DNA of 64,000 bases from the NCBI GenBank assembly GCA_050084515.1, contig CM114271.1, positions 48,422,001 to 48,486,000 on the forward strand, in the 5' to 3' direction. Shown here in pieces: positions 2,958 through 35,561 of this stretch; position 1 is the stretch's first letter; every line of letters begins with the position of its first letter. The notes under the pieces were generated by a model that had not been told where the DNA came from, ran no database searches, and was given only the letters and a program-made list of their open reading frames with translations. The DNA comes from Blasia pusilla. Taxonomy: Eukaryota. The translations under genes were made by a program, and so were the position numbers.

Positions 2958-2993
2958 TTTCTGTTAAACTAAATTCGTTTAATAAGAGGATTT

Positions 2994-3634
2994 TGTCGTG
3001 CGCATACACATCGCTACACAACATACATCGCTGTCACCGAACACACACACAAACACGCACGATCCCATGCTAACTCATGGCATCCAAACAACAAGACAAG
3101 AAGTACCAAATATCTCCAATAAATTGAGATCCAATCTCTCTCTACACAATCTCACACCATAGCTCTCAAGGTGTGCACTCTCTCTCATGTCAAACCAAAC
3201 CCACTCTCCTAATGAAAGGCTTGGGTTACACTCACAAGGCAAGGGACCATAGCTCCGCCGCCTCATGCCAAGAGGTTCAACAAAGAGAGAATGAGCTCTC
3301 AAGCTCTCTCTCCTTGGGATATATACCCCTCCCCTCTCCCAAGCTCTCTCCATGGTAACCTATTCTCCCAAGTCACCTCCTTGGCTCTTGACCTGATGTA
3401 CGAGGTCAAGGGCCACTTACTAAAAATATAAAGTCGATCATATACTCAAAATGGTACTTACCTAAAATAGTAAGTTTCTCAATATGGCTCCAAATGAGCC
3501 AAAACGAAGGGAAAACCTGCTCTCTCAGGTTTCCCGGGGCCTCAGCAAGTCATCCTCGACCTCCTAGGCCTATCCTCCACTACTCTTGAAGATGCTCTAC
3601 TAGATCTCATCGATCTATCCTAAAGGACGTGACA
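2994..3634 (-). mobile_element. Solo terminal unit (X+Y, 641 bp) of the DNMT-Gypsy family B
   Basis: TGTCGTG...CGTGACA termini. Matches 15101-15677 and 58889-59528. Flanks attt/actt are at best an imperfect 4-bp TSD. Confidence 0.9.
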
Positions 3635-5708
3635 ACTTACCCGGACTTGACTCGTCGCTTATCGGAGTGGATACTCATTTTTAATTACCCATGATTGCGC
3701 CGTCCTCCACTTCAGCGACCTCTTCACACATTGAAGGTTGAACAGCTCATCTTCGCTCCCTCCAGTGAGGACCAAGAAACAACCCTTGTCACTCACATAC
3801 GCGTCGGCAAAAGAAAACAACAGCACGATCTGGTCATACGAAAGCGGGACATTCCAGTCTAGGACGGTTTCAGACGGATTGTTGTCCCACAAGCAAAACC
3901 CAGAAGGCGAATCCGCAATGAGGAGGTCGACCGCCACCTCCTCAACCACCCCATGCACCGTCCAGGGGGCGTGCCCATTTCGAAGGAGTTTTCGTCCCAA
4001 CACGGTCAGTTTGTCTATGGCAGGTATCGACTCCTGAGAACTGAAACTCTGCAGCTCATCGACAAGATGAGTCAAGTGAACAAGGACATTTTTCTTGGTG
4101 GTTGTCTCCCTATGCCTGCCCAAGGATGATGGAGTGTATTCCACATCCTTATCTCCTTCCTTAGACGAACCAGGCGCCTCCCGCTTCCGCTTCTCCCGAG
4201 TCTGATGTCGGCTTGTGGGAGTCTCTGTTACCTCAGACTCCATAGGAGTTTTCTTCAATGAGGACCTGGTCCGGCCCTCTTGCCCCACTCGCCCGGACAA
4301 TTCCGCCTCTCACCTTGAGGACTCAGCCTCTTTTCTGGAAGACTCCGCCTCGGAATTCCTCGATCCCCTGGCCTTCCTCAAACCCGTTGTAGATTTGTCT
4401 TTGGCGGTGACGACCTTGCCCACCAACTCCGCTGTCTCAAGGGCTTGCTCCTCCGCATCTCCTTCGGAAAAAATTTCAGGTTGCACGAGGTTCGGAATAT
4501 CCTCCCTACCTGCGACCACTGCATCATACACCGTGCGTAGATTATTTTTCTGTAATATCCTCTGGGTCGTTGAAGTCCAACCTGATTGGACAATTGTTAA
4601 CCTCCCAGTTGGACATGCCCTATCCCATCTCTATGTCGTATGTGGAGAATGCCTCTCCATCAGGCGGAGAAGCCCACAATTTGCAGACTGCCGGTAGGTA
4701 CCTGCATTCTTACAATTGATGAGGTACCTATACTCCATCCGCTGGGCAGCTCTTTGTCGAGATGACTAGGCCGCTTGGTCCTGAAGATCCCGCTTCTTCT
4801 TTGCAAAATCCCATTTTTTTGGCGTCTATTTCCTCATCTTGGTCTGCCTGAGGGAGGATGTGATTCTTGAACATCATCCAGAATCCCGGGGATTTTGTGG
4901 GCTTATCTCTGATGTCATCAAGCCATAGTTCAAAATCTTCTTCAGCCTCTAGGCTTGCTTCCTCTGGAACTGGCTCAATCTTCTTCAGCTCTGCTTGAAG
5001 ATCCATGAGCATGGACTTCCCCAGAAGGCTTAACGCGTCCCATAATGACCATTCCCGTAGCCAATGGGAGATTAGTGGATCTGAAACTCCCAGAGGATGG
5101 TGTGCCGCCCGCTTTTGGGCCTTAGTGCCCTTGAGACTGATTTTCATCAATCGGATTTGCCTAAACTCGGAAATTCTAGATAGCGCAAATGTGTGCACGC
5201 GGTCCAGAGACACTTTCTTGCCGATCCGACCCTGTGGATCTTCGTCTCTCTTCCACTCGCACTTGATTATCGCCTTGAGCTCCTTGTAAAACTCCGGGCT
5301 AAGTTCAGGGTTGAGAACTGCATCTTGCTTGCATTGTACTTTGTAGCTGCAGATAAAGCAGCCTGAATAAACTTTGCACGTTCCGACGCTCATACGTTCT
5401 CCCTTCGCTCCAGTTCCAACGAAGCACTCTTCTTGGCGGCCTGGATCTTGGACCAACATAGGATTGTGACGGCTACATCTTGGGAAATGAAGGTATTTGC
5501 CCAAGTCTTCTTTTTTATTTGAGCTCCCTTTTCCAGCATCTCATTTACCAGACCGTCGCCCAGGAATCCCTTGTACTTTTCCGGGTGCGTCGTAAGCACC
5601 TTCTTCACCCTGTCGCAATCTTGGATCCAATGGTGGGTGATGTTCCCCTCAGATACAAGCCTGCACATCCAAACACAAGATAAGAATACTGTAAGCTATC
5701 GGGTTCCT

Positions 5709-14543: not shown

Positions 14544-15991
14544 CGATGCAAAATGAGGTCTTAGATTTTACTTTCATTTGCCAAAACCTTCACTTTGAGC
14601 TTGAACTCTTTTCAACCTAGGACAAATGATAGATTTTTTTCAGACCTTGGATGGAAAAAGTGTTTTGTTCCACATTTATTATTCCAATGATTTTTCAGTT
14701 TTTAAAATTTTGTGCAAATTGCAACCCGTCGGATTTTGACGGGTTTCCAAAATGTGGAAGAGGAAAAAAAATTGTGTGGGAGTGCCTAAGCACTGAGAAC
14801 AAAAGTGCAAAAATAATCACACAAAAAGTTTCCTCTCTTCAACCCAACGGAAACTCTCTTCAAAAAAAAGTTTCTCTTTGGGTTGAAGGTAGTTTCCTCT
14901 CTCCTCTCTTCCTCTCTTCCTCTCCTCTTACCGGTCCTCAGTTCTTCTTACAAAGCTTCTTGCCGAAGCTAGAATCACTATCGCACTTGGGCCTAGCGAT
15001 CTGCTTACTTTGTTGGGTCATCAGCTTCATCAAGTCCATCATATGGACATAAAGTGTCGAGTCACTTCAGTTTGGAGCCAAAGGCCCTGTAGAAGGATTT
15101 TGTCGTACGCATACACATCGCTACACAACATACATTGTTCTCACCGAACACACACACAAACATGCACGATCCTAAAGTAAGATCCAATCTCTCTCTACAC
15201 CATCTCACACCATAGCTCTCAAAGGTGTGCACTCTCTCTCTTTCATGTCAAACCAAACCCACTCTCCTAATGAGAGGCTTGGGTTACACTCACAAGGCAA
15301 GGGACCATAACTCCAACGCCTCATGCCAAGAGGTTCAACAAAGACAGAATGAGCTCTCAAGCTCTCTCTCTTTGAGGAATACCCCTCCCCTCTCCCAAGC
15401 TCTCTCCATGGTAACCTATTCTCCCAAGTCACCTCCTTGACTCTTGACCTGATGTAGGAGGTCAAGGGCCACTTACCAAAAATAGAAAGTCGATCATATA
15501 CTCAAAATGGTACTTACCTAAAATAGGAAGTTCCTCAATATGGCTCCAAATGAGCCGAAATGAAGGGGAAACCTACCCGTGGCCTCAGCAGGTCATCCTT
15601 AACCTATTGAGCCTGTCCTCCACTACTCACGAAGGCGCTCTACTAGATCTCACCGATTTATCATAAAAGACGTGACAATTGTCGTGCGCATACATATCAC
15701 TACACAACATACATCGCTGTCACCGAACACACACACAAACACACACGATCCCATGCTAACTCAAGGCATCCAAACAACGAGACAAGAAGTACTAAAATAT
15801 CTCCAATCGCCCCCCTACCTGGTGGTTAGGTCCCTCTAACTCCAGATAGTCATCTATCCCTACCTACCATGACATACATCTCTAGGACGCTAAGAGGAGA
15901 AAGGCCGGGTGCTCATGTGGCCCCATCATTAGTCGCCTTCCTGTCATCCATGTCACAAAAAAAGTCAGAATTGAAACCTACCTAGTATCTC

Positions 15992-16145
15992 CTCTATGTA
16001 CATCTGGGACACATCCATTGTCCCCGAGGAACCCTAGTAAGAGGTGGCGTCAGACATGCCATATGCCAACCTCTCGAACATCAATCATAGACTAGCATCG
16101 TGGCCGCACCACAGGCAGAACCACACAACATACAACGCAAGCGTG
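15992..16145 (-). pseudogene. PHD finger at the integrase C-terminus
   Basis: RCMLCGSACGAATMLVYD*CSRGWHMACLTPPLTRVPRGQWMCPRC fits the C4HC3 pattern, with one Cys mutated and a stop. Confidence 0.9.
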
Positions 16146-19060
16146 CAGGAACTACTACTAAGCTTGGATCTACTCTACCATCAATATTAGGAAGGTGACA
16201 TGGCGCACAATTACGCACAAGGTCCTTCCATACCATACCACCGCGTCCCTCCACCAAGAGAACAACAGATGGCAAACCGTCACGCACTCTCAGGATAGTG
16301 CGCCCTACAGTCACATCCAATATTTTCGGTGTCGTCTGCTGCAAGTAGATATAATATCCTTGATGAAACCTCTGGATAGTTGGTCGATAACCACCACCCT
16401 GAATAGTCGCATACCTCAACGTATTTTGATGTTGTGCAATCGCCAAGTTCTCAAACGCCATGGGCATCACTCTCTGAAACAACTTAGCCCTCTGAGAACA
16501 TGCTCGCATCCATATATCTAGGTCATCAAGATCCAGCACCTCACCAGCATCTCGACAAATGGCCACAGGTAAATCTGGCTCTCGGCCATAAAGTAGCAAG
16601 TACGGTGAAAAAGATTCTAAGGATGCCTGCCTGCTGAATCTGTATCCCTTTGCCAACCAGGGCAACTAGAGGTCTCAATCTCCTAGGTGACCTCTCTGCA
16701 AGCCATACTTACGTAAACCCCTCTTCACCGTCTGCACAACTCTCTCCGCTAATCCATCCGTCTCGGGATGATCTTGCGAAGTCGTGTGGTCGTCGATCAG
16801 CGCCTGATCACCCAAGGCTTGGAACTCACCATGAAACTCGGTACCCTCGTCTGTCAACACCTAAGTCGGTGCGCAATAATGACTCACCACTCTGTCAAGG
16901 AAGGCATAAGCTACTCCCTCAATCGCTTTGTCAAGCAATGTAACCAACTCGATCCACTTCCAGAAGTGCTCGACCATCACCAACACATAACGACTATGAC
17001 GCTCCGTCAAAGGCAAAGGTCCTACAAAATCCAAACTCCATCTATACCCTAAGCCCATGATCGGTAATGGATGCAATTGTGGAGTCAGAGCATTGAACGA
17101 TGCTCGAACCCGATCACACACCACGCACCTGGCAACAAACTGTTGAACGTCAGTCTGCATACCTCGCCACAATACTGAATCTGGAGCAAGTTGTACGTCC
17201 GCTTTATCCCAAAGTGACCCAACTCCTCGTGGGAATGTTGCAGTAGTCATGCTCTCTGCAAAGGATGCGGCACTATACATACTCTACCATCCTCCCAAAC
17301 CCTCAAAACATGTGTCTCCTCCCAACGGAACCGTCTGGCCCGCTATAGGATCCGATCCTGCTCTCTAGCACCCACGGTGCTCGCAACGCTGCCAATACAA
17401 AGGTACTCCAAGACTACTCCATCATCATGAATATCTCGGCCACTTGTGGTCTCCTCACTCACCTCAGGATCCAAGGACTCTCCACTAGACCTCGCCATCA
17501 AAGTCTCCACACTGTGGCTCTCCATAGCCAACATGCATATATAGGCTGACGCGTGCCATCCTGGCACTAACTCCTCATCACTTTCTCCATGCCATCGAGC
17601 TCCAGTCACATCTCTCTAACTCAAGCATGGGTTACGACTTAACCCATCTGCATCTTGGTTGAGCGTCCCAGGTCTATGTACCACCTGAAAATCATACTCC
17701 TGCTACAACAGAGCCCATCTCTCTCGAAGTCTCTCTCTCCCTCGCAAGCTTCCCTGTAAGCTTGTCAGACTCCATCAACCACTTCAATGGTTGATGATCA
17801 GTGATGATGGTAAAGGGGTTGCCGAATAAGTAACACCTGAAATGCGCGACAGCCCACACTGCAGCCAAGCACTCACCCTCATACGAGCTGAACTTTGCCT
17901 CTGTAGCGTTGTTCGAGCGGGTAGCATAAGCCACCACGAACTCTCTACCCTAATCATCATGTTGGGTGAGCACTGCTCCAAGCCCCAACATGCTCCAATC
18001 TGTGTGCAACGGGAAAGGACGCCCCCTGATCCGTCTCCTCAAGATGGGCGCGGACGTCAACATGTCCTTGAGCAACTGAAATCCTCGCTCCTGCTCATCC
18101 TCCTAGTGCCACTCGTGATCCACCTTGGTCAGCAAGGTTAGCGGCTTTGCAATCGAACTGAATCCCTTGACGTATCGCCGATAGAAGTTCGCCAATCCAT
18201 GAATGCATGAACACGGCTCACATCCGTAGGAGGTGGAATGCATGAGATAGCCTCTACCTTCGTCTACTGAACACCAAGGCCCCCTAGGTATATCGTATGA
18301 CCCAAGTACTCAATCTAGTCGTAGAAGAACTTGCACTTGCCTGGATGTAGCTTCAGCCCATTCAATTACAATCGTCGAAACATCTCCTCTAGATGTCGCT
18401 CATGCTCGTCAACCGTGGCGCTAAAGACTACAATGTCATCAATATAACACCTAGCAAAATCAAGACCAGCCAATATCCTATCCATGACCCTCTAAAACTC
18501 AGTCGGAGCGTTCTTTAACCCAAATGGTAAGAACCGCCACTAGTACAAACAATCCTTCCCGTGAGGATCGATGCTCCAAAATGCCGTCTTTTTCCTGTCC
18601 TCCAATCTAATAGGCCGGTGATGGTATCTGGCTCGCAAATCCAATGAACTAAAGATCTTTGCGTGACCAATCGCATCAAAGATCTCCTCAGGGGTGGGCA
18701 TGGCATACCTATTGGACTTCGTCTGCCGATTGATAAGTCGGTAATCCCCACACATCCGCCTATCTATACAGTTTCCATGCACATCCTTCGTGGCAAGCAT
18801 GACAATGGCAGATGCATACTCCCCATGCGACATCTGCACTAGTCTTGCTCCGACCAAGTCCTAGCTCCTACTCTGAATCAGAGCCCTCTCCATATCACTA
18901 TACCTCTAGGGTCGTCGGAAGATCGGTGTATCACTCGACAACTCAATGCGGATCCTCGGTCCCTTCAACGTACCCAAATCCTTCATGTTGAACGCAAAGC
19001 AGCTCCTATATCTCTTGAGGAATTGATGTATCCGGCGCCGCTCTCCTCCTATCAACTTAG
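16146..19060 (-). pseudogene. RT - RNase H - integrase (Gypsy order), disrupted
   Basis: RRMCGDYR...KIFSSLDLR...YIDD; VAYATRSNN...YEGECLAAVWAV...TDHQPL; HGHFG/CxxC zinc-binding region; WSLDFVGPLP; LTDEGTEF; HPETDGLAER. Confidence 0.95.
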
Positions 19061-19399
19061 GGCCCATATTTGGCTCCCAAGTCTCCATCGTGACTACAGT
19101 AGGACTCTCCGGCGCGGGTATCGGTGGTTGCTATGGTGCAACCCCGTCTCGAACAACAGCACTCGGCCGCTCTCTTGTAGCCAACTGCAAACTCTGATCT
19201 CCTCCACATGCAGTGCCCAAAACCATGCTCGATATTGTGGCTTTCATCTCCTAGCGTACCTGCAAAACATCCCAAGAAGTCCAAGGGTGTCTCTCCCAAT
19301 CTCCCCTGGTGTGTAGGTCTCCTCGATTCTCGCCCCTAGCCACTACCTCCACCGTCTTGATAGGCATGGGGCTCACCAACGCAATCGTTGTGATCTGTC

Positions 19400-20350
19400 G
19401 CGATCTCATACGACGTTGCTCAGCCACTCCCAAGTTGAGGATCCATGTCAAGCAATTTAGGTCCATCGCTTGACCCAAGACATGGCGTCGTGATCCCTGT
19501 GACACTAACGGTACTGCCGTCACTCCAGTGGGAAATCCCATCGCTCGCTCTCTCGGCGTTGGGCTCCACCAACCGCTGAACCTGGTCATCCCAAACCAAG
19601 CCAAGACCGGCCTCCTTGTATGCATAGGAAGCAGGAAAACTCACAAACGTGGGAAAGCCTGCCCGCGGCCTGCCTACCCTCTTGACCACAGTCAATAGTG
19701 GTTGATCATTGTGCCTCACTGCCTGTGAGCGACAACCTGGATACAGAATGGAATCCACTAACAAATGGGAGGGGCGCTCCACTCTTGCATACGCCCTCCG
19801 TAACACCGCATGGGGCACCAAGTTGGTCCACCATAGACGCGGGCGATGGGCTCTAGAACCTACACTCGTAGTATCCAAGAACACTATTGGGCCGATCCAG
19901 GCACGGACTTGATGAGCACTCATCACCACCTATGACCTGGAGTCTCCTAAGATCGGCACATTCTCCAAAATGTAGGCTGGAGAACAAGACTGGTGCTCCT
20001 ACAACTGCCGTAAGACCCTCAACATCTCCCAAAACAACCTGGATCGAGTATCAGCCAACCCGATGCCTCGTCTAGCATTCGATTGGCCCTGACATGGCCA
20101 ACCGGAAATGACCAAATCAATGGTCCCTACCCGCTCTAAGTCTCTGGTACCCCTGTACCATGGACGTAGACAATAAGTCGGGAAAACATAGGCATAATTA
20201 TGCCACATGTCGTAGTGAGACGCGCCTCGCAACATCATCACTCTCCACATACATGTACTCTTGCACTCGCACTCCTGCCTACAAAACAGCAGCTAACCCG
20301 ATGCTAATCCCTCCAAAGAGATCTAACATTCAAATATCCTCCTTCGGGGT
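19400..20350 (-). pseudogene. C5 cytosine DNA methyltransferase domain (DNMT3-like), copy 1
   Basis: LDLFGGISIG (motif I), IDLVISGWPCQGQS (IV), YILENV (VI), GSRAHRPRLWWTN (VIII), ERAMGFPTGVT (IX), RRHVLGQAMD (X). Confidence 0.92.
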
Positions 20351-20497
20351 ACACCACACAATGGGTGTGGTATCCAAGGGTGTCATCAAAGCACTCTCTG
20401 CTACCTCGGGTTCCTCAGACCCATCACCCTCCGATGCAAACGCCTCGCTCCACGCGATCTGCATGTGCTCATCTGCCAATCGTCAAAGCTCCTCAAC

Positions 20498-21150
20498 CGC
20501 TCATGCTCCTCAACCGTGGTGCTAAAGACTACGATGTTATCAATATAACACCTAGCAAAATCCAGACCAGCCAAGATCTTATCCATGACCCTCTGAAACT
20601 CAGCCGGGGCATTCTTTAACCAAAATGTTAAGAAACGTCACTAGTACAAACAATCCTTCCCGTGAGGATCGATGCCCCAAAATGCCGTCTTCCGCTTGTC
20701 CTCCAATCTGATGGGCAACTAATGGTATGTGGCTCGCAAATCCAATGAACTGAAAACCTTTGCATGACCAATCACATCAAAGATCTTCTCAAGGGTGGGC
20801 ATCGCATACCTATCGGACTTTGTCTGCCAATTGATAGGTTGGTAATCCCCATACATTTGCCTATCCGTCCAGTTGGCATGCACATCTTTCTTGGCGGGCA
20901 TGACAGTGGCAGGTGCATACTCCCCATGCGACATCTCCACTAGTCCTGCTCCAACCAAGTCCTGGCTCCTACTCCAAATCAGATCCCTCTCCATATCACT
21001 ATACCTATAGGATCATCGGAAGATTGGCGTATCACTCGACAACTCAATGCGGATCCTCGGTCCCTTTAGCGTACCTAAATCCTCCATGCTAAACGCAAAG
21101 CAACTCCTTTAACTCTTGAGGAACTGATGTATTCGGCGCCACTCTCCTCT
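20498..21150 (-). pseudogene. Duplicated N-terminal half of RT
   Basis: Parallels 18410-19060 (EMSHGEYA...KVFSSLDLR...RCYIDNIVVFS) and ends at the duplication junction, about 20497. Confidence 0.9.
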
Positions 21151-21499
21151 TGTCAACTTAGGGCCCATATCTAGCTCCCAAGTCTCCATCGTGACTACGG
21201 TAGAACTCTCCGGTGCGGATATCGATGGCTGCTATGATGCAACCCTGTCTCGAACAACAACACTCGACTGCTCTCTTGCAGCCAACTGCAAACTCTGATC
21301 TCCTCCACATGCAGTGCCCGGAACCACGCTCGATGTTGTGGCTATCATCTCCTGGTGTACCTGCAAAACATCCCAAGAAGTCCAAGGGTGTCTCTCTCGA
21401 TCTCCTCGGGTCTCGCCCCCAACTAGTGCCTCCACCATCTCGATAGGCATGGGGCTCACCAACGCAACTGTTGTGATCTCTCGCGATCTCATCCAACGG

Positions 21500-23750
21500 T
21501 GCTCAACCACTCCCAAGCTGAAGATCCATGTCAAGCAGTTCACGTCCATTGCCTGACCCAAGACATGGCGTCATGGTGCCTCTGATACTGACGGTACTGC
21601 CGTCACTCCTATGGGAAATCCATCGCCCGCTCTCTCTCGTCGGCGTTGGGCTCCATCAATCTCTGAACCTGATCATCCCAAACCAAGCAAGGACAAGCCT
21701 CCTTGTATGCATAGGAAGCAGGAAAACTCACAAACGTGGGAAAGCCTGCCCGCGGCCTGCCTACCCTGTTGACCACAGTCAACGGTGGTTGGTCATCGTG
21801 CCTCACTGCTTGTGAGCGACAACCAGGATCCAGAATGGAATCCACTAACAAATGGGAGGGGCGCTCCACTCTTGCATACGCCCTCCGTAACACCGCATGG
21901 GACACCAAGTTGGTCCACCATAGATGCGGGCGATGGCCTCTAGAACCTACACTTGCCGCATCCAAGAACACTGTTGGGCTGATCCAGGCACGCACTTGAT
22001 GAGCACTCGTCACCACCTGTGACTTGGAGTCTCCTAAGATTGGCACATTCTCCAGAATGTAGGCTGGAGAACGAGACTGGTGCTCCTGCAACTCCCGTAA
22101 GACCCTTAACATCTCCCAAAACAACCTGGACTGAGTGTCAGCCAACCCGCTGCCGCGTCCAGCACTCGATTGGCCCTGACATGGCCAACCGGAAATGACC
22201 AAATCAATGGTGCGTAACCGGTCTAAGTCATGCACCCCCAGCAACGAAATATCCCTCGGTGTCGTGTCGAGAATCTTTCTTCGAGCAAGGGCGGGCCTTC
22301 TAGCTGCGGTAGATGTGGTCGATGCAAGATGAACTCTCTAATAAGTTCTCCTTTTTCAATACAAAATTATGATGTACACTCTCCATTCTCTCACGACAGG
22401 TATCACAAATGGAAGTGCCGAGGCGATCACTTCTTCGTAACATCGGATCCCGAAATTCCTAACTATAAAATCCCTATAAACTATTTTACGTTTGTACACG
22501 AGGAAGATAGCACAACTAGTGTTAAACCCTACTTGACCAGGCCTATTGACATCCATGGATCACTATATAAGGACATACAAAGTACAATCCCATGTCCTTC
22601 CATATGTGACGATAGGAAGAATCACCGGAGTTGGAGATTGCATGACTGGTTCATGAACGCCTCCCAAAGTGATAAACTAAATAGCGAGTGAACCAAAGGT
22701 GCCTATCTACAAAGAGTACCTTGACATGGTAAGGATTGAGGAAAGGAAAGTCGCAGCACGGCTCGTGCTCCATCCCTATCCATGCTTGATGACATTCTCT
22801 ACTCTCCTCAAGAATGGGTTTTGGCGGAGTTATTCTCCCAAGAGGGGTAATCCACTCATTGGGAAAGTAACAAGCCAAAACATCCGCTATTTTAGTATGG
22901 CTAAACTCCTCTCGGTGACAAACCTCTCATCCCCCCACACACACACACCACACTCTAGAAACCTCTCGAAGAATAGACCATGATCAAGTTACTCTCCCAA
23001 GAGGGGTGATCCACTCTTATTGGAAGAGCAAGCAATCCCAAAGCCATACACTCAAGAGAGACACGAGAGACTCAAGATGTGGAATACAAGGTGATGAACC
23101 CTTGAAGGTCCCTCCTCTTTATATACTCACAAGGGATCCACAAGAGTACGAAATAGAGCTTATCTTATCTTGTGCCACATGGCTTCCTCTCAAGGCTTAG
23201 CCAATCACATTTTGACACAAGTAGATTTCCTCTTATCTCTTCCAAAATATCCTCTTTTACCCACATGATATTTTCCAAATTACCCCAACTAACCTAGCCA
23301 CCAACCAAGACTACTTTTGCTTTTCATTAAAGCAACTACTTTACTTTTATAAAGTCATCTTTTATTTATTACCTCCTTTTCCTAAAGTTAGGCCCGCATT
23401 AAAGAGGCACCATAAAGAGGTTTAAACATAAGAATCTCCTTTTTCTAAGCCAATTTACTTAATACTAATGAAACTCTATCTAACACTTAATGACGAAGGA
23501 GTTTACACACTGGTTGATTTTACTATACGACATCGGTAGGGAACTCTGGTAGCCCTGTACTGCACACATAGACAATAAGTCGGGAAAACGTAGGCGTTAT
23601 TGTGCCACATGTTGTAGTGAGATGTGCCTTGCAACATCATCACTCTCCACATATAGGTACTGCTGCACTTGCACTTCTGCCTACAAAACATCAACTTACC
23701 CGGTGCTAATCCCTCCAAAGAGATGTAACACTCGAATACCCTCCTCCGGG
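21500..23750 (-). pseudogene. C5 cytosine DNA methyltransferase domain (DNMT3-like), copy 2, split by a solo LTR
   Basis: Motif I region at about 23700-23740. IDLVISGWPCQGQSSAG...PAYILENVP...HRPHLWWTN...ERERAMDFP in ORF 21609-22244. Confidence 0.92.
22260..23532 (-). mobile_element. Solo LTR, family A, inserted in the DNMT domain
   Basis: Reverse complement of 1162-2430, with TG...CA ends and 4-bp TSD tcgg. The empty site is visible in the sister copy at about 63695-63722. Confidence 0.93.
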
Positions 23751-23943
23751 GTACACCACACAATGGGTGTGGTATCCAAGGGATTCTCTCTTTGTAAAGT
23801 AAGATCCAATCTCTCTCTACAACATCTCACACCATAGCTCTCAAAGATGTGCACTCTCTCTCATATCAAACCAAACCCACTCTCCTAATGGGTTACACTC
23901 ACAAGGCAAGGGACCATAGCTCTTCCGCCTCATGCCAAGAGGT

Positions 23944-24700
23944 TCAAGGGTGTTTCGTAGCACTCCATGCTACATCGGGTTCCTCAGACCCGTCATGCTC
24001 CGGTGCAAATGCCTCGCTCCACGGGGTTTGCACGTGCTCATCTACCAATCGTCGAAGCTCCTCAGTCGAGCCCCACAGCGGCACCTCTCCTCCACGGAAT
24101 GATGCGGCTACCATAACACTCCTCTCCATAGAAATGTCAAGAACGGGAGTATCCTTTGCATGGACATGTCTCTCAATCAAATCACTGGGCCAAGTGATGG
24201 CACTACTAAATGCTGCTAAGGTCGCCATCTCTCCTGGCCATTGCTCGATCATTGCACTTGTGAATCGAACGGGTAATGAGCTAAGGCGCCCATCACCTGA
24301 CTGCCATCCTAGTCGGTAGGATGCTGACTCCTCCCAGTAATCCACTGAAAACCCCATCGAGTATAACATTGCTCCATCAACCAAGATGTCGTAGGACTCT
24401 GCATCAGTCACCATCGCCTTGGCTCGCACCACGGACTCATCTATAGGATGTCCCCGGAAAATCCTCACCACGTCCTCTTGTCGGGTGATATACTGTGTGG
24501 TACTCACTCCACCCAAGGATGTCTGTATCCGGAATGGACAACGCTCCATATTGGCTCTCGTCAAGCCAAATCCTCTAAATGACGCTTTTCCCAACATCAG
24601 GGGTTGCGCTCCTGAATCCAACAAGACGCGTTGTGGACTAAAAGCTCTACCTCCGAGACTTACCAACTAGAAGACTGCTCCTTGGTTATCTAGCAACATA
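23944..24700 (-). pseudogene. Aspartic protease and linker of family B
   Basis: RVLLDSGAQPLMLG...YDILVDGAML. Confidence 0.88.
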
Positions 24701-24994
24701 ACACCAGGAGAAGCCATGGCACGCTCTATCGCGAGTCTAGCGGGCATCTCCGCCATCCTAGTAGCCGCAACTTGCCATGAATCTGACGTGGACGACCCGA
24801 GCATCCGCTCTAAGGGCAAGTCTATCACCTCTGAATGTGATGCAGGAACTCCAACTCCACTCTCATACTGTAGCGGCCAGCCGCAAAGCCTCGTTGGGCG
24901 TACCCCCCAACGTCATAACATCGGAAGCAGAAAATAAAGGAGCGCGGTACACAATGGTGGCCGCCCCCAACAACGTGCTCGACACATGCCCCTC

Positions 24995-26806
24995 CTAAGC
25001 ATCAACAATAGGAGTCGTCACACTCGCTTCTCCCATCGCCCTCCGTGCGTGCACACCAACTCTCCAGGAACTCTGATCAGGACCCATCGATGGGGTCCTC
25101 ATTGCCTCGGACAACGTGAAAGACTGAGGAAGCGTAGTCTGTTTCCTGGCTTCCCCTCGCTGTGAATCTAACTCTGCGGTTGCCTCCATCTGGGCAACTC
25201 CGCACATCCAACCAGGATCCTCCATATCTCTGATTGCTCCATATGATGTCGATGCCACGGATCTGACATCGGGTAATCTCAATGCCATAGCGGAAATCTG
25301 CTCCTATAGCTGATGTATCTGAGCACCCATCCTAGCCTCACGCCCGACATCTCCCTCGACGCGTCTAGGTGGTGGGACTCTACCTCCTCCACAGGCAACT
25401 CCACCACCCTGTCAGGAAACTCCAGCTCCTTGTCCCCCAACGGGACCACTTGGTGCATAATCTCTAGGCCCACCTGGACTCGCTACTCGCTCTGGTGCCC
25501 TCTCTGGCCCTCGGTCCGGAGGTAACTCAGGATGTAAAATGAAACACTTGGCGCGTGTATGACCATACCTCTGACAATAGTCACACTGATCACCTCCTGG
25601 TGCAGCACCATCTCCTCCTCCATGCTGAGGCACACGTCCATGACCCTGATGAGTGCAATCGCGCTGATGATGGGCTCTACCATATGACCAAGAAGTAATA
25701 GTAGGTGGCTGCTGCTGAGCCGCATATGAAGGCGCAGGTCTATGTGGCACAGCCTCTCGGTATCCTCCGTGAGCTTGTGCTGCCATAGTCAACCTATCTT
25801 GGAGTCCACGTTGTTGTATAGGTAGTGTAGGCAATCGTGACAACTCTCGCCCTGAACCCATGGTGGCTATGCTCTCCTCCGCCATGTTGCGCTCAATGTT
25901 CTCGGCGGTCCTAAAAACATCTCTCAACATAGGGAGGTGTTTATAAGAAGCACCCCCTCCCGCACCGCAGGGTCCGATCCAGCATCGCGTACCATGACTG
26001 GATAGCCTAAGCCTCTGTCACCCCTGAGTGACGTTGATCAACCGGCGCAAGCGAGTGTAAACCTTACGCAAACTCTCACCCGGGCGCCTCTGGAAGTCGT
26101 GGATGCTCCGCAACTTCTCCGTCCGTACCCCTTGGTAGCTCGCCCTCAACTCAACAAAGAACTCAACCACGGGGTTGAACCTGGGACGAACCCGACTAGA
26201 TGGTGCAACTGCTCCAGTGCGAGTGACCCCTCCTAAAACATCACTAGTGGAAGAGGAAGTAGCCTCTCCTGACTCCTCCTCCTCATCTGGGAACGGCTCC
26301 GTCCATTACACATAGTGTGGATTGTAGTAGAGTCGGCATGCCTCAATCTCCTGGGCATATCTATGAGAGAACTCATGGTAATCGTCCATGGATGCCCCTT
26401 CTAAATGCTAGAACATACCGTTCCATGCTATAAACGGGTTGAACTCTCTAGAGTTCCTAGCCGGCTGTGAGTCACACCAATTCCTACACTCTGCAATGAA
26501 GTCATGTAGCTCTATGGTGCCTACAGCACCAGAAAACCCACGCGGTCCTCTACCCCGGTCATCCATCTCGTACGCCCAACTGGTAGGACCACTCAATGTG
26601 TACGGTGGATCACTAACACCCTCCTCTACACGCTCCCCCTCATCTGAAGATGAGATAGAAGGAGATCGAGGTGGTCTCTCACGTGGAGACCCTCGAAACC
26701 TCGCACCACTCCGGGTAAACCCTCTAGAGCTATTCTCAGGTCCACTCCCTCGCCTCTCAAAATCCTGAAAGGACGCCGTGATGGTCCTTGTGCCCCTCTC
26801 ACACAA
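24995..26806 (-). pseudogene. Gag of family B with zinc knuckle
   Basis: GFSGAVGTIELHDFIAECRNWCD...; CDYCQRYGHTRAKC (CX2CX3GHX4C) at about 25550-25590. Lies upstream of PR. Confidence 0.85.
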
Positions 26807-27689
26807 TCACTCCCAACCTCGCGAGTAATCCCTCAATCACTCATCCCAAACATGCGGCACTCGATCTACACTCTCCCTCCCCGAGACCTATAACGTGCGG
26901 CAACAAGCGGCGTGGTGCGGCAAATCGACCAGGCTATCATCTCATCAACAACCTACCCTCAACTTCGGACATCCCACATAGGTCTATGTCCCCTAAATCA
27001 CATACATAAATGATGCTCTCAGCATCTACGACCCAATATCCTCAAATAAACTACCCAAATCCCAGGATCCCTGACACGTGTAGGGTAAAGGACCAGAATA
27101 GGTAACCTGAACACATGTCGATGTCGCTCCTCAGCAATTGTAAATCTCGACCCCAACTCGGTCGTGGAGACAACTCCTCCAATCAGCAAGTCATACTCCT
27201 CTTGTACTGACGTTGCTCAAAACTCCTCGATAGATAGTGCGGTTCCAGCGGAACGGTGCGGCGTTGCAGGAGGCACAGAACGGCTACGAACGGCACGGCC
27301 CTCGATGGTGGGATGCGGCACTTGGCAGCATATCCTCCTCAATCAACAATAAATCCACACTCTGCTCCACAATGACGGTGCGGCTCCACGATCGAGATGG
27401 TGCGGTGCGGCCACGAGCAGCAATCGGCGGCACGTTGCGGCTACGGGCGTCACGGCATGGTACTCGATCATTGTCGAGCGGCTACCAATCACAACATAGC
27501 AGCATGAAATCAAAACTCAAACACCATAACTGGAGGTCATCTGCCATCACAGGTTGATGACGAAACTACGATGACAATGGCGGCCAAAACAAAATACGTG
27601 GTGGCGACGCAAGTCAGAGAATCAACAAACGTCGTGGAAGACCCTCCACTCCGTAACGGCGGCAATGGCAACCAAAGGGTGGACAACGG

Positions 27690-27830
27690 ACGATGGACCG
27701 TTGACGGTGACAGTTGACCGTTGATGGTGATGGCCGACCGGTGACTATGACCATTGACAGTGACGGTTGATCGTCAATGGTGATAGTTGAACATCGATGG
27801 CGGACTAATGATGGTGACTATGACGGCGAC
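27690..27830. repeat. Degenerate (TGACGG/TGACCG)-like hexamer repeat in the 5' leader
   Basis: gaccgttgacggtgacagttgaccgttgatggtgatggccgaccggtgactatgaccattgacagtgacggttga. Confidence 0.7.
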
Positions 27831-30434
27831 GGCCGCCGCCAGTGTGGCGGCTGGTTTAGGGTTTGAACAATTTAACCCTAAAAATTGTTTAGCAATGGCA
27901 GTTTTGCAAGATTGACCATAACTTTTTCCTTGCAACTCTAAATTGCATTCTGTTTGTTGCATAGTGTGCACAGCTTCACGATCTACAATAGCATTAAAAA
28001 ATATTTAGAATCGGACATTCCAGTAAAAATTGACGGGGAATGTCTTAAAGCCCAATGTCTCTTTCTTCTACACAAAATTTGGCAGCGCTTCCGCGATGAT
28101 TTCTCCCAATGAAAATGTAAAACCTACAAAAATACAAATCAGCAAGCTACATAGGGCTCTCGAGAGCACCGGCATGGGGCAACCCGTCCCAATAATCAAT
28201 CCCTATCAAAAATTGGGCAGCGCTTTCGCGCGCCACTCTTCCACACGAAAAATCGGCAAATGCAAAGAACAATCAAAGCAGCCCTTTCTCCAGTGAGCAC
28301 TCCCATGAGCCGTTGAATGGGGAACATGGTCCCTAACGTGCAAAAACAGCGAGTGACCTGCAAGCTCCCCCATGAAGCTCTCTCACTCTCTCATTCTCTC
28401 ATTCTCTCTTTGTAAAGTAAGATCCAATCTCTCTCTACACCATCTCATACCATAGCTCTCAAAGGTGTGCACTCTCTCTCTCATGTAAAACCAAACCCAC
28501 TCTCCTAATGAGAGGCTTGGGTTACACTCACAAGGCAAGGGACCAAAGCTCCGCCGCCTCATGCCAAGAGGTTCAAAGCAAAGAGAGAATGAGTTCTCAA
28601 GCTCTCTCTCCTTGAGGTATACCCCTCCCCTCTCCCAAGTTCTCTCCATGGTAACCTATTCTCCCAAGTCACCTCCTTGGCTCTTGACCTGATGTAGGAG
28701 GTCAAGGGTCACTTACCAAAAATAGAAAGTTGATCATATACTCAAAATGGTACTTACCTAAAATAGTAAGTTCCTCAATATGGCTCCAAATGAGCCGAAA
28801 CGAAGGGGAAACCTGCTCTCTCAGGTTTCCCGGGGCCTCAGCAGGTCATCCTCAACCTATTGAGCCTGTCTTCTACTACTCATGAAGGCGCTCTACTAGA
28901 TCTCACCGATCTATCCTAAAAGACGTGACAAATATCTAAGACATCCTAATGACTAGAGCTCGGCCTCTCGAGAGTTGCCGTCTCTTCCTCTGGCTCTTGG
29001 TCCGTCATTAGTTCATCTCTTGGATTTTTTTGCTTGACTGTGCGCTTCCTTCGTTCTTTGCACTCGATTGCCATCTTCAAGCGCTCGGTCACATCTTAGT
29101 AGCTGATAAGTAGAGATCTATTGCACCAACGGCATAGAGAGCCAGCGGACTGTCTTGAGTGTTACTTTGTTTTGAGGTGTTGGATGAGGTTGAGGATAGG
29201 TCCATTTTTTTAGGAATGTCATTTCTGGTGACTTTCCTATTTTGGTCTTTGACAACCGGGTGACTTGTTGAGCAGGTCATCCGCCCCTGATAACCTATAC
29301 GCGCAAGTTACTTGGAGGATTTCTAGGGTCAGAGTCTTTTGGCTCTTCCCAAAGCCATATTTCTCATGTTGGGTCGTTGGAGCACCTCTCTTGCTCATGT
29401 GTGAGGTAGGAACTAGAGTGCTACACAACTAGCGTGCGGATTCCTTCATAGTAGAGGGTGGACGAGGCTCAATATGTTGATGTAGATTCAAGAATGGAGT
29501 TTTAGGCTAGGTGTGTCGGTATTACTTTTCTTTTTATATGAGAAAGATGCGAGGGAGTAGGGGGACTCGTTGTTTGCAAGTAGGCAAGGGATTTGCCTTG
29601 GTTAGGAGCCCCTAGAGATGTAGGTTGGCATTTTTCTTTGGTAGTATTTTTGTTTGGAAGGCCGTGCAAGGAAGCGTTGTCTATTTTTTGTATTTTTTTT
29701 GGTGCCGGTTGACGGGGGATAGAAGTTGGGTGTGGCGGCAAACGGTTACGAATGAGTAACGGGAAAGGTTGGGAAACAGAGAGAGAATTTCATGTCTTGG
29801 GGCAGTTGTTTAGTAAATTGGCTAGGACTAGGTTACAAGAACCTTACTCTAATCACAAGCGGGAGAGTCTCAAAGGGGAGCGTGTAGCTTCAAAGGCGGG
29901 GCAAAGAGAAGGTGCAGTTGAACAAGGTCTTAGCTTGCGCACCACAATGAGACGGATGGAAGGAGCCACGCCATGGAACAGTACATGGCTGGGAGCTGGA
30001 GAACACAACCCCGCCGTGTGTAGAGAGGAAGGAGTCACAAGCGAGGTGCATCCATAGGGACGTGTACCGGAGGCTGAGTAAATGAAGGCACTAAGGCTCC
30101 AGAGGGAGCTATGCCTCTGGATGAGCACAACTACAATCGGGGTACAGATGTGGGTGTATATGGGGTCGGAGTAGCAGAGCGGTAGGGCAAAAGAGGCACT
30201 GCAAGTCGAAAGCAAGAACAGGAAGGGTCACGGACGGAAAGAGAGCTACCACGAGCCAATTGGGAAGGAGTTGCAGATTTGGAGGTAGCCACGTGGAGAC
30301 AAAGTTGCGTCTAGAGGGAAGCATGTCCGAGTACGTGCCAGGATAGATAGGGGTTTATGGATAGGAGTTTGGAGTGAGGAAGGGAAATTGGGAGCAGTCG
30401 GGCTTGTGGGACGGCAAATGTAGCCGTTGGCTAC

Positions 30435-31974: not shown

Positions 31975-34900
31975 TGTTGTGTCATTGAGGGTATTCGGTA
32001 CCGGGTAGTAGTTGGTGCTAGGTGGGGATGGTGATGAGTGTAGTCTCCATGCATATATAGCATGCTTGTGGATATATAACGGTTGCCGAGGAGGGGTCGC
32101 ATGTATGACCGGAGAGAGGGAGTGAGTAGTTTAGGTGAGCTAGTAGGGAGGCTTAGGGTGAGCTAAGTGGGAGACTCTTGGTGAGTCTGAGTGATTGAAC
32201 GTGTGAGGCAAGATTGTCATTATGGTTTACTTCTAGGGTTTGGAAGATCGGAGTAATGCAAGCAGTAGTAGTGGTGTGACATGGAGTGGCGTGAGGTATC
32301 AAGGGGTTTCTAGTGAGGAACCATCCCGAAACCTATTCGTGGCTGGATGGTCATCACTAGACAACGGATCTAGTGACAATATTGCATACAGAGATAGTGT
32401 CACGTGGGGAGAGATAGACGATATGGGCCATCGGGGCATGCGTCATTTCTTTAGTGCAGTAGGCACCATAGATCTAGATGACTTCATCCTGGAGTTCGAC
32501 ACTTGGTACGACTTCCAAGAAATACGGACCCCTATACGGTTCTACCCTTTTATGGCGTGGAAGGGTTTGCTCCAGCATCTAGAGGGTCCTCTGATGGATG
32601 ATTACATTGAGTTCAGATCTTTACAATCATTAGAGATCGATGCCTAGAGGATGTATTGGGCTCCACGGTATGTATCCACTAGGGGCCGAAAGGCATATGA
32701 TGAGATAGTGAAGACAGAGAGACCTACACCATCAGCCCAAGGATAGTAGTGAGGATGGTGAGGTGGTAGAGACCTGTGGTGATAGAGGGCCACCTAGTTT
32801 CAGTCCTAAATTGAAGTTCTTCCAACATTTGGGGAGGAGCTACCAGGGCGTGCCGACGGACCAGCTGAAGAGTCTACAGGATTTTCAATGGAGATCGGAT
32901 GACAATCCGAGAGAGGCGTTCACGCACATGCAATGACTCTTCATTGCCACATATGGGGTGACTAAAGCACAGCAAGCATAGTATTAGTACGGGGTGCTGG
33001 ACCATGAGCTAAGGAGGAGAGTCTAGCATGCAATGTTGCTTCACACGTAGAAGCCCACAATGAAGGTGGTCTTGAAGTTGTTTGAGCGGGTAGAGCTCAA
33101 CATGAGTGAGGAGCATGTGGTGATCATGGGATTTTCATGAGATTCAATGGATTCACGAGTAGTAGTAACCTCACAAGTGTCTCTGTATGCACCAATACCA
33201 AGGGAGCGAGCCGGCGAGCCAAGAGAGCACAACGGGTATCGTGAGTCGATGAGGCAATGATCCGCATCAACATATGTTATATTACCCAGCAAGGACAAGG
33301 GTTGGCTTGTTGGATGCGTGAGGGACTGCCCACATAGAGGTAGAGGGGCCGAAGGCGCCTCTGATTACTCGATCGAGAGCCACCTCGGATGGCCCCAACA
33401 TAGTTGCAGTATGATCATTGTGATCGATATGGTCACACTAGGGATATGTGTTTTGATCTTTGCCTAGAGGTACGTCCAAAAATAGGCAAAGGATCAAGGG
33501 GCGAGAGAGCTAGTGGAGATCGAGTAGTTGACAATCATGGTTGTAGAGTTCCACCACCAGTCGAGGGAGATGAAGGACATGTATCGGATGGAGTGTTCCT
33601 CACTCGCATCGATTAGTTGGAGTAGAGGATTGTTGCCATGATGATGATGATGTAGGTAGGGACAAGAACAGAGCCGACAGTAGCTAGTGTGGCTCCAACC
33701 TCCACATCGTATCGGGATACCGGGGAGGATTATACGGGATTGAGGTTAATGTGTAGTACGGCTCAGGTAGAGGCTGTTGCGGTGGTCACTCGGGGTGCTA
33801 CAAGATGACTGAGCCATTGAGAGGTGGGGTGGAGATCAATCCACAAGAGGGGACCAATGGGCAGCAGGCCTAGGTTCCTTTGTTGTTCACGTTGTCAGGG
33901 GCAATTCACACACCATTGATGATTCCTCGATGACCAATGGTGCCCATAGGTGAGGCAGGTATGTCAACGTCATGAGGAGTTGGAGAGATGATTCCTATGT
34001 TGGCTTGTGTGGAGCTAGTATCGACTTCATTATTGGAGGTGGCCATTAGGGTGAGCCAGGCTCTATTTTTTTCCGCCATGGAGTTGGCGACAATGGGAGT
34101 TGGACCAGCGAAGGTGTTATGGCTCGCTGCTATGTTGTGTGAGCATGGAGAGGTGACTGCTTCTCATTTAGAGATAGTTGTTGAGGAGGTGGTGGACATG
34201 CCCTCAGAGCATGTGCTCGAGAGGTCCCCCATGTCACTTCGTCATGGCATGCTACAGCAACAAAGTTGATAGATATGCCAACTAGACCAGCGATAGAGCG
34301 AGCCATGATCACACTAGGTGTAGTGTTCTTGGATAACCAAGCTAGAGTGTTTTGCTTGGTTAGTCTCAGAGGTATGGTATCCACTGCGCATCCTACTTGA
34401 TTCGGGAGCGCAACCCTTGATGTTAAGGAAGGTGACGTGTTTGGCATTGGAGTTACCAAAAGGCGACATTGAACGTTGTTCCTTTCAGATATAGACCTCT
34501 ATTGGGGGCCTATCACCCACACAATACATGACTTGACAAGAGTTAATGGTTAGACTCCAACTAGAGCATGAGAAGGATATTGCGATGGTAAGCATTCGGA
34601 AATTACAACACCGGCAGAGTCGTATGATGTGTTGGTAGGGAGTACGGTATTGTATCCCCTTGGTTTCATTCTGAATTTTTGTGAGGAGAGGATTTCTTCT
34701 TGGCTAGGATGGTGATCAAGTGATGGACGGGTGAGCCATCTACTGATGTAGTTTGGAGGGGGTAGTAGTGGTCGACCACGCGAGGATACGGTGACCACGT
34801 TGGCAACATTCACAAGTGATGTTAGCCTATCAGGAGAGTTGTTGGAGAGAAGCACACATATGGAGGAAATTCTTGTAGCCGATCGTCCCACAAAGAGACA

Positions 34901-35417
34901 TGCCAAGGTAGGTATCTCTTCCCATAGTGCGGAGATTTCTTTACCATTGTTGGGTATGAGCAAGGATTGCAGACGAGCTTGTGAGGCATGCGTTGGGTTG
35001 TGCCTATGTCTTGGACCCAATAGATTAGATGAAGGTCATGCTCTTGGGTGGAGACTTCATATCTTTGGATACCACACATGTTGTGTGGCAACGTTTGGAG
35101 CAGGGTATAAGAGTGTTAGATCTCTTTGGGGGCATCAACACAACGGGTATTTGCAATGTTGCAGTGTTGTGGGGATGACGGCACTGATGGTGCTAGATGT
35201 ATATAGGACAATAGATCATGTTGGATATATATGTGTGAACTATTTGGAGTTGGCGCCGGGGATCCAACAACCAGCTAGGGGGACTGTTGGGTTATCTCAA
35301 TCGTGAGTTAATTTTTGTACATGTGTGGATCTACCCGTATGTTGGGGAAGATGGGTTTTTTGTGGTGTGGATATGGCCAGCAATGTGTATTGTGTAGCGA
35401 TGCGTATGCGCACAACA
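31975..35417 (+). mobile_element. Old, internally deleted relative of family B (gag, PR, start of DNMT, then 3' end)
   Basis: Gag GTIDLDDFILEFDTW...FMAWKGL; knuckle CDRYGHTRDMC; LLDSGAQPLML at about 34390; GIRVLDLFGGIN at about 35105. Then ccagctaggggg and a Y-like end ...tgtagcgatgcgtatgcgcacaaca. Left boundary approximate. Confidence 0.82.
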
Positions 35418-35561
35418 ACTCGCCTCTTCAAATCTCCTCATTGTTTCTTGCATCCCTCCCCAAGCGTCTAGGTCTCACTGCTACCTTGAGTTCTCCCCAA
35501 GCGTCCAATTGCTCCTACAGCCTCAAGTTCTCACTTACCAAGGATTTTCTCTGATACCGCA

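Follow-up and report, generated by a model that had tools for sequence, protein, structure and literature searches.

The closest described systems are the DNMT3-bearing retrotransposons reported by de Mendoza et al. 2018 (PMC5890265), namely a Gypsy element of Klebsormidium nitens (KnitGypsy-Dnmt3) and DIRS elements of Symbiodinium (SymbioDIRS-Dnmt3). The legend to Fig. 4c of that paper gives the repeats of KnitGypsy-Dnmt3 in the order A-coding-B-A-B. Here we describe elements of this kind in a 64,000-nucleotide stretch of Blasia pusilla DNA (CM114271.1), hereafter the window, in which a sequence-only reading had noticed a cytosine methyltransferase (DNMT) between the protease (PR) and the reverse transcriptase (RT) of a retroelement. 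Taken as a whole, the window is best explained by decayed copies of a bryophyte Ty3/gypsy-type lineage that carries a DNMT3-like C5 methyltransferase, and we consider this explanation highly probable.

The whole window was scanned with Pfam as stop-to-stop open reading frames (ORFs). The scan covered 257 of the 306 ORFs with a length of 70 amino acids or more, and 49 short ORFs in 29856-64000 were left out. Element layouts were ordered by tblastn with Marchantia polyproteins (P0006, P0007), repeats within the window were found by self-blastn, and 32 related loci (L numbers) were taken from metagenome contigs. Two elements carry the argument.

15100..28931, minus strand: element A, a rearranged and decayed Ty3/gypsy-type retroelement with split direct repeats (tblastn, self-blastn)
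58889..64000, minus strand: element B, which runs off the end of the window (Pfam, blastn)

The gag(CCHC)-PR-RT-RNase H-DDE integrase order of the Ty3/gypsy (Metaviridae) type is present, as recognized by the Pfam families RVT_1, RT_RNaseH, Integrase_H2C2 and rve together with tblastn. The methyltransferase lies between the aspartic protease (24831..24001) and the RT (21180..20500; 19094..18198). What might be called long terminal repeats (LTRs) are split direct repeats, which in element A run in the order A1 (28931..28413), internal region, B1, A2 and B2, and on the 3' side of element B in the order B1-A2-B2. The complete A ... B-A-B arrangement is present in locus L016, and B-A-B 3' ends are present in L009 and L026. 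Neither a clear target-site duplication nor a tRNA primer-binding site or polypurine tract was found. The canonical layout of the family is A - gag(CCHC) - PR - DNMT - UAG - RT - RNase H - integrase - PHD-like finger - B - A - B.

Set against its published description, KnitGypsy-Dnmt3 shares with the window family a non-permuted DNMT3-like domain in a Gypsy-type coding region with a DDE integrase, the A-coding-B-A-B repeats (also in window elements A and B and in L016, L009 and L026) and a Ka/Ks near 0.2 for the methyltransferase; these likenesses, like the differences, are to the description and not to the sequence. The host differs, being a land plant with bryophyte relatives of the element rather than a charophyte alga. 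In the window family the methyltransferase stands between PR and RT, with a conserved UAG after it. As described in the same paper, the SymbioDIRS-Dnmt3 elements of dinoflagellates also have a DNMT3-like domain in the Pol polyprotein and A-coding-B-A-B repeats. However, they are DIRS elements with a tyrosine recombinase from an unrelated host lineage, and their domain methylated CG in yeast.

Gypsy-DNMT3 elements with split repeats are a known kind, whereas a land-plant clade with the methyltransferase between PR and RT, ahead of a conserved stop of leaky type, was not found described. In the full-text literature searched (subscription journals and PDF supplements lay outside it), neither DNMT-bearing retrotransposons of bryophytes nor the Marchantia gene models discussed below were found described. 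The species table of PMC5890265 includes Physcomitrella and Selaginella and does not include Marchantia, and where PMC12344493 (2025) and the preprint 10.64898/2026.05.21.726589 (2026) treat the streptophyte precedent they cite only the de Mendoza case.

Identity, relatives and constraint of the methyltransferase

The methyltransferase copies of the window were aligned to the intact Marchantia protein P0007, with frameshifts allowed and X placed at breaks.

23522..23812, minus strand: DNMT copy 1, N-terminal part (motifs I-III); 3 stops in the frameshift-aware alignment
21317..22295, minus strand: DNMT copy 1, motifs IV-X; GWPCQ and ENV intact; 1 stop, 2 frameshifts; PF00145 on ORF 21612-22337, E 8.5e-12, 45.6 bits
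19213..20476, minus strand: DNMT copy 2, motifs I-X; 5 stops, 3 frameshifts, 12-codon deletion at 20143; PF00145 on ORF 20002-20292, E 3.9e-7, 30.3 bits
62819..63958, minus strand: DNMT copy 3 (element B); GWPCQ intact, ENV changed to ETV; 3 stops, 2 frameshifts; PF00145 on ORF 63540-63809, E 2.4e-6, 27.6 bits

The sequence-only reading had suggested a check with the DNA_methylase model, and the three minus-strand ORFs listed all score above the PF00145 cut-off of 22 bits. They sit among ORFs matching RVT_1, RT_RNaseH, Integrase_H2C2, rve, a CCHC knuckle and a weak PHD finger. That reading had also counted three copies; three PF00145 loci are indeed present, but two of them belong to the internal duplication of one element, and there is a fourth remnant at 35029-35175. 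Its claim of a complete motif set with retained catalytic residues holds in part. Motifs I (DLFGGIS), IV (GWPCQG), VI, VIII, IX (RERAMGFP) and X (LGQAMD) stand in colinear order; the domain is therefore unpermuted, and GWPCQ can be read in all three copies. Motif VIII is AHRPRLWWTN in copy 2, with the second Arg replaced by His in copies 1 and 3. However, ENV is intact in copies 1 and 2 only, and no copy has an intact frame. The DNMT copies of the window are pseudogenes without present function.

A profile (A1) built from 14 DNMT-only relatives ranks DNMT3A first in the PDB (4.9e-20), followed by DNMT3C/3B (~4e-17), DRM (1e-12 to 2e-10), M.HaeIII (1.8e-7), DNMT2 (4e-7) and M.HhaI (6e-7), and it returned neither DNMT1 nor chromomethylase at E<0.01. 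The alignment to DNMT3A is colinear through motifs I-VIII and then IX-X. A PDB search with a single ORF gave a weak and mixed result (DNMT3C 1.6e-3 versus HaeIII 1.9e-3), and discrimination came from the profile alone. For the intact relative P0026, an AlphaFold (AF2) model of moderate quality (pLDDT 66, pTM 0.73) was compared by Foldseek, and its best 50 matches are all DNMT3A/B/C (best E 4.8e-15, target TM 0.76, identity 20-24%). Judged by profile and fold ranking, the domain would be classed as a DNMT3-like C5 cytosine methyltransferase, which bears out the DNMT3 resemblance noted at the outset.

The window domain has the methyltransferase fold and motifs in common with host DNMT3A/B/C and plant DRM, and its motif VIII (AHRxRxxWxNL) and motifs IX/X align with DNMT3A. 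In contrast to DRM it is unpermuted. It also differs from the host enzymes in its low identity (the 20-24% given above), in lacking PWWP and ADD, and in an insert of ~90 residues between motifs VIII and IX. Pfam found neither PWWP nor ADD in the window ORFs or in eight relatives, and there is a PHD finger after the integrase instead. In a protein-cluster atlas the nearest cluster is eukaryotic, with Streptophyta commonest; the next clusters are phage methylases, which we judged non-specific.

Relatives of the domain are abundant. A 242-amino-acid window ORF matches polyproteins of Marchantia polymorpha and Calypogeia fissa and a protein of Sphagnum troendelagicum at 47-62% identity, with the closest of these named relatives at 59-62%, and further relatives come from M. 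paleacea and many metagenome proteins. The suggestion that this is a multi-copy family in land plants is thus upheld by named relatives from three bryophyte genera. Against 1.84 billion cluster representatives, the profile found 15505 matches at E<=1e-3, 2883 at <=1e-10 and 448 at <=1e-30, and the best 150 library matches (all <=7e-64) are all of retroelement type. A homologue search aimed in part at named host DNMT3 returned none, giving retroelement proteins only (20 of 8000 candidates scored).

Domains were marked with phmmer seeds in 217 proteins, and a FastTree phylogeny of 176 DNMT domains (unrooted, without a host DNMT3 outgroup) resolves two clades that match domain order without exception. 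The PR-DNMT-RT clade (support 0.987) has 55 leaves, of which 28 show that layout, 24 have an unresolved layout and three are the window copies. The RT-RH-DNMT-INT(-PHD) clade (RH, RNase H; INT, integrase; support 0.903) has 121 leaves, 96 with the layout and 25 unresolved, and includes the chlorophytes Monoraphidium neglectum (P0219) and Haematococcus lacustris (P0227; other domains not resolved). The window copies form a clade of their own (0.996) within a crown group of Marchantia, Calypogeia and Sphagnum sequences.

In the sister clade the methyltransferase follows RNase H, and a PHD finger follows the integrase. The methyltransferase of this clade (P0023 is an example of its members) is 39% identical to the window ORF, and the RT-RH region is 42% identical to that of element B. 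The best PDB relative of a profile of this clade is again DNMT3A (1.4e-16). Its consensus motif IV is GWECQ, and a Glu in place of Pro before the catalytic Cys is unusual among C5 methyltransferases; across all proteins fetched, GWECQ/GFECQ occurs 74 times and GWPCQ/GFPCQ 83 times.

Ratios of nonsynonymous to synonymous substitution (dN/dS; NG86 method, bootstrap 95% confidence intervals) show that the domain has been kept. Between elements A and B, the two DNMT comparisons give 0.20 (0.14-0.27) and 0.21 (0.15-0.30) with dS 0.66-0.74, and RT-RH-INT gives 0.30 (0.24-0.38) with dS 0.45. Among intact metagenome DNMT ORFs, comparisons across lineages yield 0.21-0.24 at saturated dS. Purifying selection on the methyltransferase, as estimated from these alignments, is at least as strong as that on RT-RH-INT. 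Because both elements are dead, neutral decay inflates dN/dS, so constraint in the active lineages was strong. Neutral evolution, which the sequence-only reading had set as the outcome that would undo it, does not describe the between-lineage values. The higher dS of the methyltransferase relative to RT-RH-INT suggests that elements A and B are mosaics.

The family is transcribed. Raw RNA reads from three runs of one study, carrying the same species label and placed at >=90% likeness, cover 15100-29000 with 3891, 4325 and 4427 reads. Most come from other copies, because they are only 90-95% alike (3144 of 3891 in run X22). First mates on the plus strand exceed those on the minus strand roughly 4- to 100-fold across bins, which, if the library is of the usual stranded type as we assumed, is sense RNA of the minus-strand element A. 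Depth is 8-21 over the DNMT units versus 36-76 over RT-integrase. Transcripts are no proof of protein.

A conserved stop codon and the predicted role of the enzyme

The methyltransferase and RT are read in the same frame and are separated by a stop codon, which in the window has the following context.

21226..21234, minus strand: stop and read-through context of copy 1, TAG CAGCCA
19125..19133, minus strand: stop and read-through context of copy 2, TAG CAACCA
62694..62702, minus strand: stop and read-through context of element B, TAG CAACCA

All 26 loci that extend to the boundary (six of the 32 do not) and all three window copies have the stop at one and the same codon. In an alignment of 27 sequences (the three window copies and 24 loci, two near-duplicates being omitted), the stop column holds TAG in 20 and TAA in seven. 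The next codon is CAR in 25 of 27, and the full CARYYA is present in five, namely the window copies, L015 (CAACCA) and L028 (CAACTA). Consistent with this boundary, 35 of 42 clade proteins with a complete methyltransferase terminate within 140 residues past the domain. The Marchantia models P0006 and P0010 continue into RT but skip residues around the stop, bridging it with what seem to be predicted introns. In L015 the GAG-PR, DNMT and RT-RH-INT ORFs lie in one frame with single TAG codons between them. Its extra in-frame TAG (3192-3194, between PR and DNMT, context TAG AGT GGT) is probably a mutation, as other family proteins are continuous there. Deep clade members have the methyltransferase fused in frame to both neighbours, because P0078 is a single 2188-amino-acid protein with CCHC, aspartic protease, DNA_methylase, RVT_1, RNase H and integrase.

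The type I read-through motif of plant viruses is given as UAG-CARYYA in PMC5382211. As described there, plant RNA viruses resemble the window family in that UAG followed by CAACCA, CAGCCA or CAACTA splits an upstream product from the polymerase. They differ in that here the host of the signal is a retroelement, the boundary comes after PR-DNMT and not after gag or a replicase core, and most relatives have CARYYC. We infer from the conserved position and its context that the stop may serve programmed read-through, with Gag-PR-DNMT as the main product and RT-RH-INT added in a minority. The methyltransferase would then be the C-terminus of Gag-PR-DNMT, joined to RT-RH-INT only by read-through, because the conserved UAG/UAA separates them. 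The earlier view that the enzyme is packaged with Pol needs amending accordingly: the frame is shared with RT, but a stop intervenes in 27 of 27 sequences.

A mechanism can be proposed on this basis. Gag-PR-DNMT would be the main translation product, and a minority of ribosomes would pass the UAG (type I, UAG-CARYYA) and add RT-RH-INT. Because the methyltransferase sits in the main Gag-PR product, it would enter particles at Gag-like dosage. There it may methylate the element's own cDNA, or RNA, using S-adenosylmethionine (SAM), before or at integration. Methylation of the element's cDNA, a self-methylation already proposed by de Mendoza et al. 2018 (PMC5890265), is a predicted activity that we hold to be possible, at somewhat less than an even chance. 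The complete proposal is of a large, transcribed liverwort/moss gypsy lineage with a DNMT3-like C-terminus on its major Gag-PR product, RT-RH-INT made only via UAG read-through, and a particle-loaded enzyme that marks its own cDNA or RNA before integration. We offer it as tentative and regard it as rather unlikely.

Several observations count against the explanation favoured here as a whole. The read-through step is argued from conservation and context only; 20 of the 27 sequences have CARYYC rather than CARYYA, and no supported structure beyond the stop emerged from RNAalifold (of 10 pairs, one shows a compensatory change). The tree is without a host DNMT3 outgroup, so that DNMT3-derived status depends on profile and fold ranking. 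None of the window copies has an intact frame, as each carries stops and frameshifts, and only three of 24 metagenome loci have a DNMT frame that stays open for >=400 codons as far as the stop. Close copies have a high dN/dS, 0.53 (0.35-0.83) for DNMT copies 1 and 2 and 0.77 for L003-L005. The call of sense RNA depends on the assumed strandedness of the library. The ratio of observed to expected CpG is 0.66-0.70 in the elements and 0.67 in the window background, so that there is no element-specific methylation footprint. Finally, the K. nitens domain gave no methylation in yeast, a result that its authors, in PMC5890265, termed inconclusive.

Perhaps the enzyme acts on another target, either the genomic RNA or, as a decoy or partner, the host machinery, disturbing DNMT3/DRM silencing. 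Selection shows that the domain is kept but names no substrate, PMC5890265 raises RNA methylation for LINE-borne DNMTs and reports the failure of the K. nitens domain to methylate DNA in yeast, and a place in the abundant Gag-PR product would suit an RNA-binding or host-directed role. However, the family as a whole has kept the catalytic PCQ and ENV together with the DNMT3-type fold typical of DNA methyltransferases, and the best structural relatives are DNA enzymes, not DNMT2 (4e-7 versus 4.9e-20). We consider another target unlikely, though a serious contender.

The main rival to read-through is reinitiation at a nearby ATG, in which case ORF1 would encode Gag-PR-DNMT only and ORF2 (RT-RH-INT) would be expressed by termination-reinitiation or from a separate or spliced RNA. 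Such an ATG is found two codons past the stop in 20 of 27 sequences (TAG/TAA CAA CCC/CTC ATG G), and both the scarcity of full CARYYA (five of 27) and the lack of covarying downstream structure would fit. Yet the window copies, L015 and L028, all of which have the exact CARYYA, lack this ATG, and ORF2 always directly abuts the stop in the same frame. Moreover, the deeper clade members P0078, P0092 and P0137 are continuous from DNMT into RT. These points leave reinitiation improbable and programmed read-through the preferred reading of the stop.

Element A and its internal duplication

Element A consists of the following parts, in addition to its methyltransferase copies.

28413..28931, minus strand: repeat A1 (5' terminal repeat), starting TTGTCACG; 92.1% identical to 15173-15678 over 521 columns, 24 mismatches
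24860..26551, minus strand: gag with CCHC knuckle (tblastn, P0007 residues 9-554; CX2CX4HX4C in ORF 25415-26017)
24001..24831, minus strand: aspartic protease region (LLDSGAQ; tblastn, P0007 residues 567-846, 49% identity)
23783..23947, minus strand: 165-bp fragment between PR and DNMT copy 1 that resembles the inner end of repeat A together with 12 bp of leader; 89% identical to 28401-28576
22260..23532, no strand assigned: a 1.27-kb foreign insertion resembling a solo LTR, bounded by TGTCGT...ACGACA and with TCGG on either side; its inverted counterpart at 1161-2433 is 96% identical
20500..21180, minus strand: RT', the duplicated N-terminal half of RT (tblastn, P0006 residues 696-883; RVT_1 on 20404-20637)
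16000..19094, minus strand: RT, RNase H and integrase (tblastn; Pfam RT_RNaseH, Integrase_H2C2)
15679..15807, minus strand: repeat B1, 129 bp, directly upstream of A2; 89% identical to 15100-15172, 94.6% to 2993-3120 and 91.5% to 58889-59018
15173..15678, minus strand: repeat A2 (self-blastn against A1)
15100..15172, minus strand: repeat B2, without the first 56 bp of B; 89% identical to B1

In tblastn order, element A reads gag 26551..24860, PR 24831..24001, DNMT 23827..23522 and 22259..21367, RT N-terminal half 21180..20500, DNMT again at 20476..19266, RT 19094..18198, RNase H 18195..17740 and integrase 17226..16000. The repetition reflects a head-to-tail arrangement in which 18397-20142 matches 20498-22229 (88.3% over 1751 columns, 181 mismatches or 10.5%) and 20142-20380 matches 23544-23782 (87.4%). 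Each unit runs from the linker ahead of DNMT to the middle of RT, and the units abut at 20476/20500. Thus, the two DNMT copies in 19400-23750 are best read as an internal tandem duplication, of at least 2.08 kb (DNMT and the N-terminal half of RT), within one element. Because the units are twice as diverged as the terminal repeats (24 mismatches in 504 aligned bases, 4.8%), the duplication would either predate the insertion of element A or result from template switching between two diverged RNAs. The repeat-A fragment at 23783-23947 borders the duplication on its upstream side and speaks for a complex rearrangement.

That same fragment, and the excess of unit divergence (10.5%) over terminal-repeat divergence (4.8%), could also be taken to mean that one element is nested in another. 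Nesting is nevertheless quite improbable because terminal repeats flank neither unit; in addition, the junction at 20476/20500 joins mid-RT to the pre-DNMT linker, and there is a single gag, PR, RNase H and integrase.

The 1.27-kb repeat that splits DNMT copy 1 is also found at 1161-2433 (inverted) and at 1-315. Its RNA depth, 28-153, is several-fold above that of the surrounding DNMT, and 110-211 reads per run continue into other flanks. The deletion in copy 2 (~36-38 bp at 20143) is at the exact site of this insertion in copy 1 (22259/23533), which could be a coincidence or the loss of an earlier insertion. The bases missing there, 26 or more, are present in RNA reads from other copies. Read joints such as those at 28931>15101, 15806>15173, 20941>18864 and 20142>23533 were considered as signs of circles or tandem arrays, but they are explained by switching between repeated units (A1/A2, B1/B2 and the duplication units).

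Decay is extensive in element A, where RT-RH-INT carries 17 stops and seven frameshifts in the alignment over 19040..16411. Could the methyltransferase be a passenger without benefit, a captured host fragment in neutral drift? All window copies and most metagenome copies are broken, and near-identical copies have dN/dS of 0.53-0.77, values that are as expected for post-insertion decay. However, the between-lineage values of 0.20-0.24 are no higher than that of RT-RH-INT, the domain is full-length in 448 clusters (E<=1e-30) and in two deep clades, and the catalytic motifs are nearly invariant, all of which makes a passenger very improbable.

Other family members and the meaning of the lineage

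The remaining features of the family in the window are as follows.

58889-59018 (B2), 59019-59534 (A2) and about 59535-59663 (B1), minus strand: repeats of element B (blastn)
60652-61899 (RH-INT ORF) and 61903-62625 (RT ORF), minus strand: coding region of element B (Pfam)
59866-60462, minus strand: weak PHD finger of element B, after the integrase (23.2 bits versus a cut-off of 24)
32432..35175, plus strand: element C, a diverged gag-PR (32432-34877; tblastn 31-37% to P0007) and a DNMT motif-I remnant, then truncated
35029-35175, plus strand: the fourth DNMT remnant, up to motif I only (hmmsearch E 5.6e-6; translation)
2993..3635, minus strand: solo A-B repeat in which A is not preceded by B; identity 92.3% to A1 and, for the B part, 94.6% to B1

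The RT-RH-INT region of element B, with four stops, is less decayed than that of element A. The PHD finger after the integrase is clear in the algal-type relatives P0023, P0090 and P0116, and by analogy with the chromodomain of chromoviruses it may be a chromatin-targeting module. The solo A-B repeat is the outcome expected from recombination between A1 and A2, and the 11.5 kb between it and element A has no Pfam match. Downstream of element C there is an unrelated repeat (35561-36566) that is ~68% identical to 6047-7088 and, in inverted orientation, to 36744-37454. At 52071-52346 (plus strand), Pfam gives a weak match below the cut-off to Radial spoke protein 3 (E 2.4e-5); if real, it would be a piece of a flagellar gene, in keeping with a host whose sperm are motile.

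Although the domain resembles DNMT3, the chance that a host DNMT3 gene or pseudogene merely happens to lie among transposons here is negligible, as PR upstream and RT downstream recur in three copies and at least 24 metagenome loci, PWWP and ADD were not found, and the relatives are polyproteins. Several Marchantia gene models annotated as "DNA (cytosine-5-)-methyltransferase" or "CCHC-type domain" (P0005-P0007, P0010) are retroelement ORFs and not host genes.

Transposons are usually seen as targets of methylation by their host, and methyltransferase-carrying transposons turn this view around. The only streptophyte case in the searchable papers is from one charophyte alga, and here such elements, with the same unusual split repeats, are abundant in model bryophytes such as Marchantia, which are genetically tractable. 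The place of the enzyme upstream of a leaky-looking stop predicts Gag-like dosage, which is testable, and the sister clade, which has the enzyme after RNase H, amounts to a natural test of the positions at which the domain can function. If the proposal is true, land plants would have a de novo methylation system carried by a transposon, and its sister would be an algal lineage with the same enzyme elsewhere in Pol.

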